Of a stretch of 64,000 nucleotides of DNA, positions 1,687 to 25,901 are shown one piece after another; the first letter of the stretch is position 1; every line of letters begins with the position of its first letter. The notes beneath the pieces were generated by a model. That model had not been told where the DNA came from. It did not search any database and worked only from the letters and a program-made list of their open reading frames with translations. A program made the translations under genes and the position numbers. Source of the DNA: an uncultured SAR116 cluster alpha proteobacterium (GTDB lineage Bacteria > Pseudomonadota > Alphaproteobacteria > Puniceispirillales > GCA-002684695). The stretch is from contig CACMFN010000007.1 of NCBI GenBank assembly GCA_902612965.1, positions 26,506-90,505 on the forward strand, read 5' to 3'.

Positions 1687-3841
<2,155 letters not shown>

Positions 3842-3842
3842 T

Positions 3843-4784
3843 TTAATATATTTGAATTACGCCTTGGATATAATTATTTTCATCAGTAACAACTAATGCC
3901 TGGACTTTTGCTTCTAACATCTTATTTTTTGCATCAATCATCAATTTATCTTTAGTAATAGTAAGAGGATTAGTAGTCATTATATTTTCAGCTTTAACAG
4001 ATGATAAATTTTGATTTTCTAGAAGCAACCTTCTTAAATCACCATCTGTTATTATACCTTGTAAGTAATTATTTTTATGAATAATTGCCAGACCCAATTT
4101 ACTTTCTGTCATTACAATTATTGCATCACTAATAAATTGATCATTGTTCATCAAAGGTAGCTTAGTAGAAATCATATTATCAGCTACTGTTTGAGTTAGT
4201 CCCTTTCCTAAACTACCACCTGGATGAGTTAAAGCAAAATCCTCTTCTGCAAAACCTCTAGCATTCATAACTGATACTGACAAAGCATCTCCTGCAGTCA
4301 TTGTTAGCATTGCAGAGGTAGTTGGAGCTAAATTTAGTGGGCATGCTTCTCTGTCAATAGAAACATCAATATTTGCCGTAGCAAAATTTGCGAGAGAACT
4401 ATCTTTCTTACCTGTCAGAGAAATAATATCGTTTCCTATTTTTTTTAAGGATGGTAACAATTTTAAAACTTCTTCAGTTTCACCAGAATATGAAATCAAA
4501 ATAATTACATCTTCTGATTTTATCATTCCTAAATCACCATGAATTGCTTCAGCTGGATGAAGAAACAAGCTAGGAGTGCCTGTGGAAGCTAATGTTGCTG
4601 AAATCTTTCTACCAACATGGCCTGATTTGCCAATTCCACTTACAACGACATGACCTTTTGAATTTAATATTAATTCAACAGCTTTATCAAACTCAATGTT
4701 TGAATTATGGACAAACCTGTCTATAGCATCTTTATAAGAAGAACAAAGATCTTTAAGAATGTTTTTATATGAAGCCTGCTTCAT
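3843..4784 (-). CDS. kdsD: KpsF/GutQ-family arabinose-5-phosphate isomerase (SIS domain plus tandem CBS)
   Basis: 313 aa. SIS motif VVVSGIGKSGHVGRKISATLASTG and a C-terminal CBS pair. kdsA is also present in the window. Confidence 0.8.
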   Translation of the reverse strand: MKQASYKNILKDLCSSYKDAIDRFVHNSNIEFDKAVELILNSKGHVVVSGIGKSGHVGRKISATLASTGTPSLFLHPAEAIHGDLGMIKSEDVIILISYSGETEEVLKLLPSLKKIGNDIISLTGKKDSSLANFATANIDVSIDREACPLNLAPTTSAMLTMTAGDALSVSVMNARGFAEEDFALTHPGGSLGKGLTQTVADNMISTKLPLMNNDQFISDAIIVMTESKLGLAIIHKNNYLQGIITDGDLRRLLLENQNLSSVKAENIMTTNPLTITKDKLMIDAKNKMLEAKVQALVVTDENNYIQGVIQIY

Positions 4785-19473: not shown

Positions 19474-19959
19474 ATGTTAAGTTTAATTAAATACCTTTCT
19501 GTTGTTTTACTTATATTGTACCCATTTAATTTATTAGCATTTAATAACTCTGATAAAGAGGAATGGCATGATATTGTTAAACAATACTTTCTAGATTATG
19601 AAAACGGTTTAAATGAATATAAAAATAAAAATTATAATAAAGCTTTTCAAATTTTCTTAACTCTTGCTAATTCAGGAGATGCAAGAGCTCAATCAGATAT
19701 TGCTGGGATGTATTTTAATGGATGGGGTGTAGAAGTTAATTACAAAAAAGCATTTCAATGGTATGAGAAAGCCTCCAAAAATGGAAATACATATGCTCAA
19801 TATAAGCTTGGTGATATGTATTGGAATGGATTTGGCGTTAAAGTTAATACTGATACAGCACAAATTTGGTGGAAAAAGGCTGCTGATAACGGATATAAGG
19901 ATGCCCAATTTAATTTACCATATCAGTACTGTCATTTAAATAAACCTCAATGCCAATAA
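19474..19959 (+). CDS. Secreted Sel1-like repeat (SLR/TPR-like) protein
   Basis: 161 aa. N-terminal signal-like segment, then three AQxxLGxMYxNGxGVxxN-type repeats. Confidence 0.75.
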   Translation: MLSLIKYLSVVLLILYPFNLLAFNNSDKEEWHDIVKQYFLDYENGLNEYKNKNYNKAFQIFLTLANSGDARAQSDIAGMYFNGWGVEVNYKKAFQWYEKASKNGNTYAQYKLGDMYWNGFGVKVNTDTAQIWWKKAADNGYKDAQFNLPYQYCHLNKPQCQ

Positions 19960-19969
19960 AGATTTATAA

Positions 19970-20497
19970 TTAAAAACTATAATTCAATCTTAAAATTAAT
20001 TCGTCATCGTAAAAGCTATGAATTTTTTTTCCATGTTTATAATCTATCCATGGTTGACCAGTTCCACAATGAAATTCACGGTCAAATTTATCATAACAAG
20101 GCTTTTCTTTGATTGAACCACCAATCTTAAAAGCATTATTAAAGCCAAAAATAAATTTTAAATTTTCTAATTCTTTACTAATCAAAAAACCCATAGAATA
20201 AATAGGCTTCACTTCAAGCAAATTACTTTTATAACCATTATCAAAATTGACTGGGAAAATCAGTAAGTTTGAATTTATTTTATATAAAATATTAGTCTTT
20301 AAATTGATCTCAGTATTTTGAGATTTATAATAATTTCCAAGATGAAATTTTTCTCCATTAGGAGCTATAAAATTTCCATCCCAAACATGGGTCTGTAAAT
20401 AATTACTTGATCCTTTTGTATCTGCAAAAATTATATTATTTCCAGAATAAACAGGGTTAGAAATCAGAGTTAATATTAATGCTATCAGCTTTTTCAT
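19970..20497 (-). CDS. Predicted small outer-membrane beta-barrel protein
   Basis: 175 aa. Signal peptide MKKLIALILTLISNPVYSG, alternating hydrophobic pattern, and C-terminal beta-signal LRLNYSF ending in Phe. I recognised no family. Confidence 0.5.
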   Translation of the reverse strand: MKKLIALILTLISNPVYSGNNIIFADTKGSSNYLQTHVWDGNFIAPNGEKFHLGNYYKSQNTEINLKTNILYKINSNLLIFPVNFDNGYKSNLLEVKPIYSMGFLISKELENLKFIFGFNNAFKIGGSIKEKPCYDKFDREFHCGTGQPWIDYKHGKKIHSFYDDELILRLNYSF

Positions 20498-20630
20498 TTT
20501 GACAATCTTTGTTAATACAATTTGTTGGATAAATTTTCATAGGTATTAGTATATTATTTCCAAAATTATCATTTACATTTGAGCAACCTATTAAAAAAAA
20601 AATTAAAATTATAGTTTTTGATTTTCTCAT
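20457..20630 (-). CDS. Unannotated 57-codon putative lipoprotein ORF
   Basis: My own translation gives MRKSKTIILIFFLIGCSNVNDNFGNNILIPMKIYPTNCINKDCQNEKADSININSDF followed by a stop. Textbook lipoprotein signal with lipobox L-I-G-C. Its ATG overlaps the subtilase TGA (ATGA), and its 3' end overlaps the next gene by 41 nt. Confidence 0.55.
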   Translation of the reverse strand: MRKSKTIILIFFLIGCSNVNDNFGNNILIPMKIYPTNCINKDCQNEKADSININSDF

Positions 20631-21763
20631 TTAGCTATAACCCTGCCTTGTGGGCTCATTGCATTTTCTAAATTGAGCTTCCCATAACCGTAAATATTGT
20701 CTGGCCCACTAGCACCTAAATCTGTCGCAGTTTGTAAAAGAACTTGTTTTATTTGAATGCCTGTTAAATTTGGAAACTTTTGCCTAACTAATGCTGCAGC
20801 TCCAGAAACTCTAGGAGCTGAAAAAGATGTGCCCGATGCGTCACCACTAAAAAGAACATCATCATGCGCTACAATAAAGTCATTTAACATGTTTCCAGCT
20901 TGATAGCTGTAGTTAGCAATTGTACTACTTTGATCACTAAGTGCACCAACAAAAATTGTATCTTCGCCAATTACGTAACCCTGATTTCTAACTCTATTAT
21001 ACACGGTGGCAAAATAATCACATTCAGTTACATATGCAGATCCGCAATACTGTGCTCCATTTCCAGCTGCAAATACAAAAAGCATTTTTTCATTGTAAAT
21101 TGGCTCTGATTTTTGATTAATACTCATTATTTTACTAGTAACGGCATCAGAAATAATATCGTCCCAATTAGGATTATTGGTACCTGTATAGCTTCCAAAT
21201 GAGTTTTTTAGAGGTTTTTCAAATCCCCATGAATTATTTACTATATAATATTCATTAGTATTGTAATAATCAAATGCACTATTTGCATTTTGTAGAGTAG
21301 TACTGAGATTTCCACTTGGGAGATTAGATAAAATTGTATTAGCCTCTGGAGAAATGCTATTCAAAACTAAAGAAACCCAATCACCGTGACTGTCAATCCT
21401 TCCATTTGAATTAAAAGAGTCAAGTATTCCTACTTTAATACCTTTACCAGTCCAACCACTTGACCAAACATTATTTGCAAGTGTATCTCTTGTTGCTATA
21501 GGATAAGATAAACCATTATTTAAAGTACTATGGGCCTGACTTAGAGAAGAAAAAGTATTTCCACTTGGTCCATCATAAGGAAGATTTCTCTCAGACCCTA
21601 ACAATATATTTGAGTTTGCTTGTTCTAAAGATGATGGATTGCCAGTTGTATAATCATAAGAAATCTCTAGTGAATTTTTGATTGATGATCCACCTCCACC
21701 ACATGAAGTCAATAATAATGTAAAAGCCATTAAAATTAAAAACTTATGATTTAAACTGCTCAT
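20627..21763 (-). CDS. S8 (subtilisin) family serine peptidase, predicted lipoprotein
   Basis: 378 aa. Asp-His-Ser order with VGILDSF, SHGDWV, oxyanion FAAGNG and SGTSFSAPRVSGAAAL. Signal peptide with lipobox L-T-S-C followed by GGGGSS. Confidence 0.85.
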   Translation of the reverse strand: MSSLNHKFLILMAFTLLLTSCGGGGSSIKNSLEISYDYTTGNPSSLEQANSNILLGSERNLPYDGPSGNTFSSLSQAHSTLNNGLSYPIATRDTLANNVWSSGWTGKGIKVGILDSFNSNGRIDSHGDWVSLVLNSISPEANTILSNLPSGNLSTTLQNANSAFDYYNTNEYYIVNNSWGFEKPLKNSFGSYTGTNNPNWDDIISDAVTSKIMSINQKSEPIYNEKMLFVFAAGNGAQYCGSAYVTECDYFATVYNRVRNQGYVIGEDTIFVGALSDQSSTIANYSYQAGNMLNDFIVAHDDVLFSGDASGTSFSAPRVSGAAALVRQKFPNLTGIQIKQVLLQTATDLGASGPDNIYGYGKLNLENAMSPQGRVIAK

Positions 21764-21786
21764 AAAAAATATATTTTCAAATTAGA

Positions 21787-21810
21787 TTATATGTTTAATT
21801 ATATGTTTAA
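21787..21810 (-). repeat. Perfect tandem duplication of a 12-bp unit (TTATATGTTTAA x2), giving two TATAAT boxes on the minus strand
   Basis: Read directly from the sequence. The minus strand reads TTAAACATATAATTAAACATATAATCTAAT, and the repeat ends 23 nt upstream of the subtilase ATG. Confidence 0.8.
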
Positions 21811-21861
21811 TCTCGTATTTGAAAATTAAACAAATTTCTATCTACTAATTAGTTACGTATA

Positions 21862-22485
21862 ATGGAAAAAAAAATTAATATTAAAATTGTTGCAGATATT
21901 GTTTGTCCTTGGTGCTTTATTGGTTGCAATCATTTAAATGCATCATTGAAATCTAGAAATTTTTATGAATACGAGATTGATTGGCAACCATTTTATCTAA
22001 ACCCAACAATGCCATCAAATGGCATGGACAGAAAACAATACTTAAAAAATAAATTTGGCAGTCAAGTAAACTTGATAGAAAGTCAAATTTTAAATGCAGC
22101 TGAAAATTATAATATTAAAATAAATTTAGAAAAGATAAACACTACACCAAATACAAGAAAAATCCATAGTGCAATATCTATAATAAAAAATTACAACTTA
22201 AATAAATCATACGACTTTGCTTTTAAGATTATGACTGATTATTTTGCTAATGGTAAAGATATAAGAAATGAAACCTATCTAACAAAAACTATCGCAAAAT
22301 TTAATACTTTTAATAAGAGTATTGCTTTAGATAAGATTAATTATGCAGAGAATAAAGAACCCTTTTTAAATTTTGATTTTATTAATGGTGTTCCTGTTTT
22401 CATTTTTAATGACAAATGGACATTAAATGGAGCTCAAGATCCCAAAGTAATAGAAACAATTATTGATATTGCAGCTAAAGACTAA
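21862..22485 (+). CDS. DsbA-family (FrnE/HCCA-isomerase-like) thiol:disulfide oxidoreductase, apparently cytoplasmic
   Basis: 207 aa. The CPWC active site lies in IKIVADIVCPWCFIG at the extreme N-terminus. No signal peptide. Confidence 0.75.
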   Translation: MEKKINIKIVADIVCPWCFIGCNHLNASLKSRNFYEYEIDWQPFYLNPTMPSNGMDRKQYLKNKFGSQVNLIESQILNAAENYNIKINLEKINTTPNTRKIHSAISIIKNYNLNKSYDFAFKIMTDYFANGKDIRNETYLTKTIAKFNTFNKSIALDKINYAENKEPFLNFDFINGVPVFIFNDKWTLNGAQDPKVIETIIDIAAKD

Positions 22486-25400
22486 ATAAGTAGATCAGAT
22501 ATCATCTTTAATTCTTCTTTTACTAATCTAATTCTTTCATTTTTATTAGACATATTTTTTTTGATTATAATTGACTGATCACTATTAACTAAAATTCTTT
22601 CAGAATTTTTTGTAATATATTTTAAAAGATTTTCTGGTTTAGGGAAAATATCATTGTAAAACTTTAAATTAATTCCATTTTTCCCTGCATCAATTTTATA
22701 CACATTAGTATTCTTACAATACTGTTTTATATTAATAATTTCTAACAACGTACTTACTTCCTTCGGGAGATTACCAAATCTATCAACCAGCTCTTGTTTA
22801 ATTATTTCAATTTCTTCCTCAGATTTTAAAAAAGCTATTCTTCTATACATCGAAAGTCTTAAAGAAACATCTTCTATGTAACTTTCTGGTATTTTTGATG
22901 AAACTCCAATTTGTATTTGAGGAGACCACTCATTTATATTTAAATTTCCTTCAACAGAATTAATCTCTATAGCGGCCTTAAGTAATGATTGGTAAAGTTC
23001 TATTCCCACTTCTTTGATATGACCAGATTGCTCTTCACCTAAAAGGTTTCCCGCACCCCTGATATCCATATCGTAAGATGCAAGTGAAAAGCCTGCTCCA
23101 AGATTGTCTAATGTTTGCATTACCTCTAACCTTTTTCTGGCATTATTAGTTAACAATGAATCGTCATTTATTATTAAGTACGCATATGCTCTTGCCTTCC
23201 CTCTTCCAACTCTACCTCGCAATTGATATAATTGAGACAATCCAAATTTATCAGCATTATAAACAATAATGGTGTTTGCTAACGGTATATCCAATCCTGA
23301 TTCAATAATATTTGTAGAAAGAAGAATGTTTGCTTTACCTTGTGAAAAACCAATCATTGATTTATCTATTTCTTCAACACTCATTCTACCATGTGCTGTA
23401 GCGATTTTCAAATCTGGTAATAATTCAATTAATTTATCATGGACTTTATTTAAGTCTTTTATTCGAGGCACAACACAAAATACTAGTCCGCCCCTGTGAA
23501 TTTCTCTTTTTATAGCTTCTTTTAAAGTTACATTATCCCAAGTAGAGACAAACGTTCTTATTGAAAGTCTATCAACAGGCGGAGTTGTTATTAGGCTCAT
23601 AGTCCGCACACCTGAAAGAGACATTTGAAGTGTTCTTGGAATTGGAGTAGCAGTCAATGTTAATACATGCATTGATTGCCTAATGGACTTTAAGTATTCT
23701 TTTTGTGCAACACCAAAATGTTGTTCTTCATCGATTATAAGGAGCAATAAATTATTAAATATAATTTTTTTAGATAATAACGAATGGGTTCCAATAATAA
23801 TTTGAGTTTCGCCAGTTTCAATTTCATGTTTTACTAATTTACTATCTTTAGATTTTACAAATCTTGATAACTCACTAACTTTTATTGGAAACCCCCTAAA
23901 CCTTTCTTGAAAATTAACAACATGTTGCTTAACCAATAGTGTTGTAGGTGCAATTACAGCCACCTGGTAACCTGCCATTGCCGCCATAAAAGATGATCTA
24001 AGAGCGATTTCAGTTTTACCATAGCCAACATCACCACAAATTAACCTATCCATTAATCTCCCAGATAATAGATCATTTTCAACATCCTGAATGGCTACTT
24101 GTTGATCTTCAGTGGGAGTATATGAAAAGCGTGAACAAAACTGTTCGTATTCGTCTGAAGGAAATTCTAATGGTTTAATTTTAGTTGTTTCTCTACTAGC
24201 AGCTACTTTTATAAGTTCATCTGCAATTTCTTTTATTCTTTTTTTAGCATTTGCTTTCCTTGCCTGCCAGCCGCTACTGCCCAGTTTATCAAGACTAGCA
24301 TCAGTACCTGAACCATATCTTGAAATAAGTTCAATATTTTCAACAGGAACATACAACCTGTCATTTCCACTATATATAAGTTTAAGGCAGTCTCTTTCTA
24401 AATCATTAGATTTAATAGTTTCTAAGCCTTTATATTTACCAATTCCGTGTTCTACATGGACAAGCAGATCTCCAGTCGTTAATGAAGTTATATCTCGTAA
24501 AAAGTTTTCTGCTTTTTTTGATTTTACAGTTGGCCTTCCAAATTTAACTCCAAACAAATCCTCTTCTGAAACAAAAAGAGTATTATTTATGTTAAATCCT
24601 TTTTCTAAAGGATAAACAATACAAGAAAAGTTATCTTTCAATTGTGATATATTTTTTATTTCGTTGATAACATCATCTTTGGCAATGCCGTTAATTATGC
24701 CTTTAATTCTCTGCAAAGATCCATTTGAGTTACAGCAAACTAATATTCTACTATGTATTTTTGTAAGGGTAAGTAACTCTTTGACTGTATTTTCGCCTTT
24801 AATTTTTGCAATACTAAAATCAATTCCAGGTTTGATATTTAAATATATTGATGAATGTTTTTCACCTGGCGTAAAAGAATTAAATTCAATTACTACTCTT
24901 TTATCTAAAATCTCTAATAATTTTTTTTTGTCCAAATATAGATGTTGTGGAGATAATAAATTAGATCTTTTGCCTTCAGTATTATGGTCATCTTTCCTTG
25001 CGTTATAAAAATCATTAATTTCCTCAAACTTAGTGTCTAAAATGGATGAATATTCTTTATCTAAAATTACATGCACATCGCCAATATGGTCAAATATTGT
25101 TGCTAAACTTTCATGAAACATAGATAAATAATGTTCAATGCCATTTGTTTTGATTTTCTGGGAAATATTATTATAAAGTGATTTATCATACTCTTCGTTA
25201 AATAGTTCTCTGTGATTTCTCCTAAATAATTCTACACTATGATCAGTTAAAATAATCTCATTACCTGCATTAAAACTTATAAAATTGATATTGTGTAAAC
25301 TCAACTGACTGATCGGGTCAAATAATCTTAAGGAATCGATAACATCACCAAAAAAATCAATTCGCACAGGGTTTTGTTCTCCAGGAGGATAGACATCAAG

Positions 25401-25901
25401 AATACTTCCCCTTAGAGAATACTCTGAATCCTCTCTAACAGTATTAGTTCTCATATAACCATTATTTTCAAAAAAATTTATTAATTCTCTTTGTGAAATA
25501 TTTTGTCCAGATTGTATGCTTTTAGATGAATTTTTAATAAAATCTTGATTAGGAATTTTTTGAATTACGGAACCAATTGTAGATAAAATTATTGTTTTCT
25601 TGCTATTCGGATTAGCTAAACTTGATAACGCTCTTACCCTTTTACCGACTAATTTTTGATTTGGTGAGTTCTTGTCAAATGGAAGACAGTCCCATGCTGG
25701 GAATTCTATAATATCAATATTATTATTTATGATTCTAAGAGATTGTGAAAACCTTGATAACCTAATATCATCTCGTAAAATGATAAGAATTTTACTAAAA
25801 TGATTACATAATTCTACGGCTGCTAGGCAGTCTGCACCATCAGGGAGATTTGAAACTATATTTTTTTTTTTTAGATTTAGATCATTGCCAAAAAGATTCA
25901 T
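22482..25901 (-). CDS. mfd: Transcription-repair coupling factor
   Basis: 1139 aa. Walker A GDVGYGKTE, DEEQHFG box and QLRGRVGRG motif. Confidence 0.96.
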   Translation of the reverse strand: MNLFGNDLNLKKKNIVSNLPDGADCLAAVELCNHFSKILIILRDDIRLSRFSQSLRIINNNIDIIEFPAWDCLPFDKNSPNQKLVGKRVRALSSLANPNSKKTIILSTIGSVIQKIPNQDFIKNSSKSIQSGQNISQRELINFFENNGYMRTNTVREDSEYSLRGSILDVYPPGEQNPVRIDFFGDVIDSLRLFDPISQLSLHNINFISFNAGNEIILTDHSVELFRRNHRELFNEEYDKSLYNNISQKIKTNGIEHYLSMFHESLATIFDHIGDVHVILDKEYSSILDTKFEEINDFYNARKDDHNTEGKRSNLLSPQHLYLDKKKLLEILDKRVVIEFNSFTPGEKHSSIYLNIKPGIDFSIAKIKGENTVKELLTLTKIHSRILVCCNSNGSLQRIKGIINGIAKDDVINEIKNISQLKDNFSCIVYPLEKGFNINNTLFVSEEDLFGVKFGRPTVKSKKAENFLRDITSLTTGDLLVHVEHGIGKYKGLETIKSNDLERDCLKLIYSGNDRLYVPVENIELISRYGSGTDASLDKLGSSGWQARKANAKKRIKEIADELIKVAASRETTKIKPLEFPSDEYEQFCSRFSYTPTEDQQVAIQDVENDLLSGRLMDRLICGDVGYGKTEIALRSSFMAAMAGYQVAVIAPTTLLVKQHVVNFQERFRGFPIKVSELSRFVKSKDSKLVKHEIETGETQIIIGTHSLLSKKIIFNNLLLLIIDEEQHFGVAQKEYLKSIRQSMHVLTLTATPIPRTLQMSLSGVRTMSLITTPPVDRLSIRTFVSTWDNVTLKEAIKREIHRGGLVFCVVPRIKDLNKVHDKLIELLPDLKIATAHGRMSVEEIDKSMIGFSQGKANILLSTNIIESGLDIPLANTIIVYNADKFGLSQLYQLRGRVGRGKARAYAYLIINDDSLLTNNARKRLEVMQTLDNLGAGFSLASYDMDIRGAGNLLGEEQSGHIKEVGIELYQSLLKAAIEINSVEGNLNINEWSPQIQIGVSSKIPESYIEDVSLRLSMYRRIAFLKSEEEIEIIKQELVDRFGNLPKEVSTLLEIINIKQYCKNTNVYKIDAGKNGINLKFYNDIFPKPENLLKYITKNSERILVNSDQSIIIKKNMSNKNERIRLVKEELKMISDLLI

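Follow-up and report, generated by a model that had tools for sequence, protein, structure and literature searches.

Among the bacterial proteases mounted on the outer membrane, the closest described relatives of the system treated here are NalP and SphB1, which are lipidated subtilase autotransporters (PMC9977779). A related but differently organized set of genes is found on the minus strand of a 64,000-nucleotide stretch of DNA (the window, below) from an uncultured SAR116 cluster alphaproteobacterium (GenBank assembly GCA_902612965.1, contig CACMFN010000007.1, positions 26,506 to 90,505). It comprises a lipoprotein subtilase of the S8 family (called S8 here), a very short lipoprotein (the mini-lipoprotein) and a 175-aa protein resembling an outer-membrane protein (OMP), which is called the partner. 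Comparison with other genomes identifies these genes as a genuine, conserved and hitherto unannotated outer-membrane protease module, in which two unannotated families, the OMP-like partner and the mini-lipoprotein, are tied genetically to a subtilase across uncultured lineages that abound in the sea.

Relationship to known protease and display systems

Like NalP of Neisseria meningitidis and SphB1 of Bordetella pertussis, both of secretion type Va, the module combines a lipobox and an S8 protease with an outer-membrane beta-domain, and in those relatives where protease and partner are fused the domain order is also the same (lipid anchor, then the S8 domain in the N-terminal part, then a C-terminal beta-domain). 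It differs in that its beta-domain is about 155 aa long, matches neither the autotransporter beta-domain nor anything else in Pfam, and normally comes from a gene of its own, signal peptide included; a beta-helical stalk is lacking as well, and the mini-lipoprotein frequently provides a third component. The module thus appears to work most like NalP and SphB1 and yet falls outside type Va, because Pfam scans of S8, the partner and their relatives gave no match to the trait that defines the type, a 12-stranded C-terminal autotransporter beta-domain in the same polypeptide. It is likewise neither type Vb (an Omp85-type barrel with POTRA domains) nor a Slam system of the type 11 secretion group (T11SS; a DUF560 barrel with TPR), because the mature partner, with its roughly 155 aa and no match in Pfam or NCBIfam, is far too small and lacks the corresponding domains.

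A small barrel is also seen in the proposed type Vf, represented by Helicobacter pylori BapA, a single polypeptide in which the passenger forms the loop between strands 1 and 2 of an 8-stranded barrel (PMC6555100). What the module would have in common with it is the combination of a remarkably small barrel and an exposed functional domain, in an arrangement not covered by types Va-Ve; it differs in that the protease is made as a lipoprotein in its own right or as an N-terminal fusion, and no sequence relationship between the two was detected.

Linkage of the protease and partner genes

A genome scan for the partner yielded 22 loci, distributed among SAR116/Puniceispirillales, Rhodobacterales (Albidovulum, Amylibacter), Parvibaculaceae and Rhodobiaceae, along with a Pelagibacteraceae single-cell genome, a Pseudomonadales metagenome-assembled genome (MAG) and a pair of short contigs assigned to Flavobacteria by binning. 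In every one of these loci that has enough flanking sequence the partner gene lies beside an S8 gene, mostly immediately downstream of it, though convergent to it in Albidovulum and fused to it in L028; a distant member of the partner subfamily, P0225, also directly follows an S8 gene. On metagenome contigs, all 27 close S8 homologs with room for a neighbor carry the partner (25 downstream, 1 convergent, 1 fused), and among the more distant S8s it is present with 27 and absent from 13. The linkage of S8 and partner is essentially obligate across the Alpha- and Gammaproteobacterial MAGs, and it is very likely that S8, the mini-lipoprotein and the partner form one module.

An earlier, sequence-only reading of the window, made without database searches, had proposed a search for the trio in other genomes, and S8 and partner prove to be adjacent in all testable loci. 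That reading had spoken of other Pelagibacterales, but the best matches among named genomes are to an 'uncultured Rhodobacterales' MAG (L011, 95% aa identity) and to SAR116/Puniceispirillales MAGs (53-59%), which have the same synteny. The stretch thus seems to come from a streamlined alphaproteobacterium of SAR116-like type and not from Pelagibacterales.

Some loci depart from the usual arrangement. Two Parvibaculaceae loci each have a single partner gene with two S8 paralogs, which both lie upstream of the partner in L025 (2821-6450) and on either side of it in L027 (4493-7752). In L035 (4176-4896) the public gene call shows no partner after S8; the interval is about 155 nucleotides (nt) longer than in the sister contig L036, and the partner gene may be disrupted there.

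Natural fusions

Fused S8 homologs of 588-626 aa, in which the partner makes up the C-terminal domain, fall into three groups (P0124/P0125/P0127/P0128, P0126/P0185 and P0181/L028). The relation between split and fused forms is seen most directly in two syntenic loci, L036 (split; 4120-4330) and L007 (fused; 3684-3900), in which about 80% of the alignment columns spanning the S8-partner junction are identical. In L036 the S8 gene ends with TAA, and the partner, starting 3 nt further on, opens with a signal peptide of its own, MRWIFSLPFLLLLAAPTAQA; L007 has lost the stop, and the homologous hydrophobic stretch, which is the partner's signal peptide in the split form, has been kept as an in-frame linker (a helix, at low confidence, in the AlphaFold2 (AF2) prediction). 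The possibility that the fusions are assembly artefacts was rejected, since they occur in three divergent lineages, on several contigs from different samples, and with an in-frame linker homologous to a signal peptide.

Because such natural fusions exist, the protease and the partner can be expected to act together, on the Rosetta-stone principle, and there are good grounds for the idea of a split between protease and beta-domain. Of the split display arrangement put forward in the sequence-only reading, the split itself is thus supported genetically, by linkage and fusions alike, while the display at the surface is a matter of interpretation and is weighed below. Occurring in both split and fused form, the module offers a minimal natural system for the question of how a lipoprotein enzyme couples to a small barrel, with a bearing on autotransport and on surface lipoprotein export.

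The lipoprotein subtilase

S8 matches the Pfam family Peptidase_S8 (PF00082; E 1.9e-22, 80.4 bits, against a curated cutoff of 21.8). In an alignment of 28 homologs D115, H126, N235 (the oxyanion Asn) and S313 are invariant, so that the peptidase with an intact D/H/N/S set recognized earlier stands; the lipobox Cys21 and the pair C240/C248 are invariant as well. Its best relative in the PDB is the passenger of the subtilase autotransporter Ssp (8E7F; E 1.1e-15), with a strong alignment only over residues 307-371; the GILDS and GTSFSAP motifs align with those of Ssp, and D115 matches the motif of its catalytic Asp. Among NCBIfam models, fusolisin and EprS are matched weakly, far under their cutoffs.

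The N-terminus has the lipobox LLTSC (Cys21) followed by GGGGSS, just as had been described. Lipoprotein calls, here and below, are matches to the pattern [LVI][ASTVI][GAS]C. The strict pattern is present in 99 of 117 S8 homologs, the misses being mostly visible variants (LSAC, LTAC) followed by GGG, and nearly all members of the family have CGGGG after the lipobox. A tether of this CGGGG type is typical of Neisseria surface lipoproteins such as TbpB and fHbp. A Pfam scan of S8 found no I9 propeptide and neither a beta-domain nor any further domain, the polypeptide ending right after the catalytic domain, in agreement with its description as a protease that has no barrel of its own.

Two larger relatives, P0048 (612 aa) and P0049 (621 aa), encoded on contigs of 25 and 103 kb, have two tandem subtilase domains of the S8 subfamily in a single polypeptide; the first of these domains seems to be N-terminally truncated in the gene call.

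The partner protein

The partner starts with a signal peptide, MKKLIALILTLISNPVYS, and ends in YSF. A word-indexed search found only 12 relatives; when 1.84 billion representative proteins were searched with a profile, the family grew to 165 clusters (at 50% identity) with E <= 1e-3, and every named member is labelled "hypothetical protein". No Pfam or NCBIfam match, including to the autotransporter beta-domain, was obtained for the partner and 50 relatives, and a comparison of the family profile with PDB sequences gave noise only. Since none of 26 mini-lipoproteins has a Pfam match either, the earlier remark that the two small proteins could not be assigned to any family still holds.

The C-terminal beta-signal recognized in the 175-aa protein is borne out by the family, in which 150 of 160 distinct C-termini have a terminal Phe, with hydrophobic residues at -2, -4, -6 and -8. 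The AF2 model of the partner, computed from 51 sequences, is all-beta (predicted local distance difference score (pLDDT) 92.9, predicted template-modeling score (pTM) 0.78), with long amphipathic strands at about residues 22-30, 65-74, 77-90, 94-110, 113-131 and 166-173, whose faces are rich in aromatic residues and which are connected through turns of 2 residues on one side and through long loops on the opposite side; the same all-beta pattern is repeated in the AF2 model of the fused protein P0125. Foldseek matches to the PDB are weak and mostly outer-membrane barrels (PorB, TtoA, EspP, Hbp, LpxR and TonB-dependent receptors). The partner is very probably an outer-membrane beta protein inserted by BAM, the machinery for beta-barrel assembly, and may form an unusual or an oligomeric barrel. 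The small beta-barrel OMP of the sequence-only reading is sustained to the extent of a confident all-beta model and a beta-signal; its closure is taken up below.

The most conserved residues of the partner lie in the long loops: D86, G88, Y89, S91 and the stretch GG..E.PC.D...REFHCGTG.PW.D, with the pair C134/C144, which close members share without exception and which reaches at least 90% conservation in the alignment of 51 sequences. Mean-field covariation (effective number of sequences (Meff) ~150) recovers the C134-C144 disulfide along with several hairpins; it also groups the 40-56 hairpin and the 86-95 tip with the disulfide loop in a single co-varying cluster that resembles a cap. A catalytic triad made up of His143, Ser91 and an Asp or Glu was considered and rejected, as distant members do not retain His143 and Ser91.

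The mini-lipoprotein

The 57-codon open reading frame (ORF) between the two larger genes encodes a putative lipoprotein with the lipobox LIGC (Cys16, by pattern). According to the sequence-only reading it was absent from the ORF track, and its public gene call in L012 is easily overlooked; real genes of 44-64 codons that overlap both neighbors can escape gene calling. Comparable genes of 44-112 codons, with a lipobox and with their start at or near the S8 stop, were found in about half of 64 same-strand loci, and in L004-6 and L065 the gene is instead convergent and downstream. The ATGA formed by the S8 stop and the mini-lipoprotein start, which had been noticed before, is present in the window and in most homologous loci too. 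A 41-nt out-of-frame overlap with the partner gene at the other end goes beyond the earlier description, and with overlaps on both sides the ORF is, to judge by the sequence, translationally coupled to both neighboring genes. Its position and its motif (below) are kept across divergent lineages; the hidden ORF is accordingly a genuine and conserved gene, with an accessory place in the module.

The alignment of 26 distinct mini-lipoproteins centers on a single short block, [NQ]x[LIV][VIT]P[MLRQ]P, which in many cases has Y/F-P behind it and is situated roughly 10-65 residues downstream of the lipidated Cys. A C-x(4-9)-C pair follows this block only in a subset. Each mature protein encoded at the window locus has exactly one closely spaced Cys pair, as had been pointed out (C240/C248 in S8, C38/C43 in the mini-lipoprotein and C134/C144 in the partner); as a trait of the trio, the pairs are conserved in the S8 and partner families and are not universal in the mini-lipoproteins.

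The block reads like a subtilisin site, with a hydrophobic residue at P4, a beta-branched one at P3, Pro at P2 and Met, Leu or Arg at P1. In at least 90% of the mini-lipoproteins the P1' position is occupied by Pro; subtilisins cleave such bonds poorly, and a Pro there should block hydrolysis. We propose that the mini-lipoprotein is a tethered pseudo-substrate or inhibitor of the propeptide-less S8, in which case it would represent a lipid-anchored regulator of a kind new for proteases. Known subtilisin sites (with the slash between P1 and P1') include M-C-P-M/V-Y-D-P in SSI, I-V-T-M/E-Y-R-I in CI-2, F-A-T-M/R-Y-P-S in marinostatin and the AAPF substrate (PMC9623506). The block is like those of SSI, marinostatin, CI-2 and eglin c in its P4-P1 pattern (hydrophobic, beta-branched, Pro or Thr, Met or Leu) and in the Tyr and Pro on the primed side, and the subset with a Cys pair shares a nearby disulfide with SSI and the ASIP peptide (PMC9623506). 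The mini-lipoproteins are unlike these canonical inhibitors in being lipid-anchored, probably disordered and non-homologous and in mostly having Pro at P1', and for them inhibition is a prediction; none of the 26 showed homology to known subtilisin inhibitor families in Pfam. A small exported inhibitor encoded together with a secreted protease, and protecting the envelope from it, is also known from AprI/Inh and the serralysins, though there the enzyme is a metalloprotease exported by type I secretion and the inhibitors are soluble beta-barrels rather than lipopeptides.

Short lipoproteins can also serve the assembly of barrel proteins. LptM, which partners LptDE, is reported to work through substrate mimicry and to act on the disulfide maturation of LptD (PMC10567701), and SadB is the lipoprotein partner of the autotransporter SadA (PMC3953254). 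The likeness lies in a very short or dedicated lipoprotein that acts on a barrel protein, or is encoded together with it, and assists its assembly. The difference is that the mini-lipoproteins match no family and that their partner is a protease system. The motif of LptM, moreover, comes immediately after the lipidated Cys, and that of the mini-lipoproteins lies farther on.

A near-identical copy of the window mini-lipoprotein in L038 (989-1162) has LIDC in place of LIGC, with Asp at -1, which could be a sequencing error or a non-lipidatable variant.

Proposed mechanism and alternatives

In the mechanism proposed here, the partner would insert into the outer membrane and serve as a dedicated anchor and assembly partner of S8, holding the lipidated protease at the cell surface, so that the oligotrophic marine cells could feed on external protein digested there. 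The mini-lipoprotein would sit in the substrate cleft of S8 as a tethered pseudo-substrate and restrain the enzyme, which has no propeptide, while it is in transit or being assembled, with translational coupling through the ATGA and 41-nt overlaps setting the stoichiometry. We put the probability of this reading as a whole (an outer-membrane protease module of the NalP/SphB1 kind with a non-homologous, usually separate small beta-domain and a pseudo-substrate lipoprotein, acting in the manner stated) at about 50%. Exposure of S8 at the cell surface, taken by itself, has slightly better than even odds: the nearest characterized relatives of S8 are autotransporter passengers, the CGGGG tether of nearly all family members is like that of Neisseria surface lipoproteins, the conserved face of the partner is on the loop side, and an inhibitor encoded in the operon would suit an enzyme that is in transit. 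The bolder idea of a new display class beyond types Va-Vf, in which a mini beta-domain co-assembles with a surface-exposed, poly-Gly-tethered lipoprotein subtilase and a lipid-anchored pseudo-substrate acts as the safety catch, is speculative and rather doubtful; such a class would be widespread among marine bacteria and would represent a third route to surface exposure of lipoproteins, besides Slam and the LptDE/BAM-mediated routes. If the protease is indeed mounted on the surface, it becomes a candidate for cell-tethered proteolysis in the turnover of dissolved protein in the ocean.

Several observations weigh against the proposed mechanism. With only about 155 residues, a barrel lacks the size to let a 35-kDa passenger through in the way that 12-stranded autotransporter domains do. 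The partner model consists of about six long strands plus short ones, in which a closed barrel is not demonstrated; the covariation (Meff ~150) has no signal for closure between first and last strand, and Foldseek, searching the PDB with the partner, returned no match under E 0.5, and the classical 8-stranded OMPs were absent from its list. The N-terminus of OMPs is periplasmic, and the fusions join the C-terminus of S8 to the N-terminus of the partner, presumably on that side of the membrane, which a periplasm-facing enzyme fits most simply. The conserved residues of the partner are in its long loops, opposite its termini, and a contact site for S8 is not evident. The AF2 model of the natural fusion P0125, built from alignment A7 (fused and barrel-only sequences), has a pTM of 0.38, with the barrel part confident and the S8 part below a pLDDT of 50, and carries no information on the interface or the linker. 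As for the mini-lipoprotein, the inhibitor idea is one of motif resemblance only; the window copy has Lys rather than Pro at P1' (LIPM/KIYP), and half of the loci do without the gene. The function of the module is read here from sequences and predicted models alone.

The strongest alternative to surface mounting, possible although on the unlikely side, is a periplasm-facing complex, in which S8 would stay at the outer membrane's inner leaflet and process envelope proteins, with the partner only an anchor or regulator and the mini-lipoprotein regulating the enzyme. Such a complex would require no translocation, and it would account for the fusion of the S8 C-terminus to the periplasmic-side N-terminus of the partner and for a barrel too small to be a conduit; a cognate inhibitor would also suit an enzyme that shares its compartment with vulnerable proteins. 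It is harder to reconcile with the extracellular location of the closest characterized S8 relatives, which are autotransporter passengers, with a CGGGG tether like that of the surface lipoproteins named above, or with a partner whose periplasmic turns have just 2 residues and whose conserved surface is loop-side; to our knowledge, moreover, broad-specificity subtilases are rarely resident in the periplasm. Another reading, which we regard as improbable, would make the partner a beta protein that is soluble in the periplasm and takes the place of the I9 propeptide, serving S8 in trans as foldase or inhibitor. The missing propeptide, the lack of a significant structural match to known OMP barrels, the peak of conservation in a disulfide-stabilized loop cluster (as in many protease inhibitors) and the tolerance of fusion to the protease would all suit such a protein, but it would leave the BAM beta-signal, with its terminal Phe and alternating hydrophobic residues, unexplained, and the long amphipathic strands with aromatic-rich faces and 2-residue turns also speak against it, as do the weak Foldseek matches, which are nearly all to outer-membrane barrels and not to soluble inhibitors.

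It is more improbable still that S8 and its neighbors are simply enzyme and substrate, with S8 a dedicated maturation protease for the loops of the partner or for the mini-lipoprotein (releasing a peptide, for example), much as SphB1 matures FHA. The tight genetic coupling, the resemblance of the motif to a subtilisin cleavage site, the cleavable Met-Lys bond in the window copy and the precedent of SphB1 and NalP as dedicated processing enzymes are in keeping with this; however, the Pro at P1' in the great majority of mini-lipoproteins makes a poorly cleaved site, many loci have no mini-lipoprotein gene, stable fusions of an enzyme to its 'substrate' would be odd, and the partner loops showed no conserved motif resembling a cleavage site. 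An incidental adjacency of three unrelated exported proteins is hardly credible. Chance is unlikely because the trio or the pair recurs in dozens of independent loci, and the neighborhood statistics effectively refute it: the adjacency is kept in all testable loci, which come from several taxonomic orders, the arrangement of the genes varies while the linkage stays, and at least three lineages have fused genes.

Locus layout and neighboring genes

The coordinates of the module and of the features around it are collected in Table 1. The three consecutive minus-strand ORFs of exported-protein type that had been listed for this region are all in place. In a scan for promoters and terminators, site counts were not above the shuffled expectation.

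Table 1. Features of the protease module and its surroundings (positions are those of the window)
Feature	Position	Strand	Details
S8 lipoprotein subtilase gene	20627-21763	minus	378 aa
Mini-lipoprotein ORF	20457-20630	minus	57 aa
S8-partner gene	19970-20497	minus	175 aa, ends LRLNYSF
ATGA overlap of S8 stop and mini-lipoprotein start	20627-20630	minus	4 nt
Out-of-frame overlap of mini-lipoprotein 3' end and partner 5' end	20457-20497	minus	41 nt
Conserved mini-lipoprotein motif	20526-20552	minus	residues 27-35, ILIPMKIYP
C-terminal beta-signal of partner	19973-20002	minus	residues 166-175, ELILRLNYSF
Most conserved partner segment	20042-20107	minus	residues 131-152, E.PC.D..REFHCGTG.PW.D, C134-C144 disulfide-bracketed loop
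Best sigma-70-like match upstream of S8 start	21798-21825	minus	TTTTCA-16-TATAAT; weak
DsbA-like thioredoxin-fold gene	21862-22485	plus	CPWC motif, no signal peptide
mfd	22482-25901	minus	overlaps DsbA-like gene convergently by 4 nt (22482-22485)

The genes on either side, one for a Sel1-repeat protein and one for a DsbA-like protein, were considered as further members of the module and rejected, as both are found there only in close relatives. The convergent, secreted Sel1-repeat protein to which the sequence-only reading had drawn attention is thus a syntenic neighbor in close relatives only, rather than a relevant one. Genes are packed very closely here: its gene and that of the partner have their stops 10 nt apart (19959-19970), with no terminator-like hairpin between them. 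The DsbA-like protein has no signal peptide; it is therefore probably a cytoplasmic protein that, although encoded next to the trio, has nothing to do with the trio's Cys pairs.

In a SAR116 MAG (L001:1664-2674) a 336-aa gene of the S9/alpha-beta-hydrolase type is inserted between the DsbA-like gene and S8; the window does not have this gene, and 98 nt (21764-21861) separate the DsbA-like gene from S8. The GC content of the window is 29.9%.

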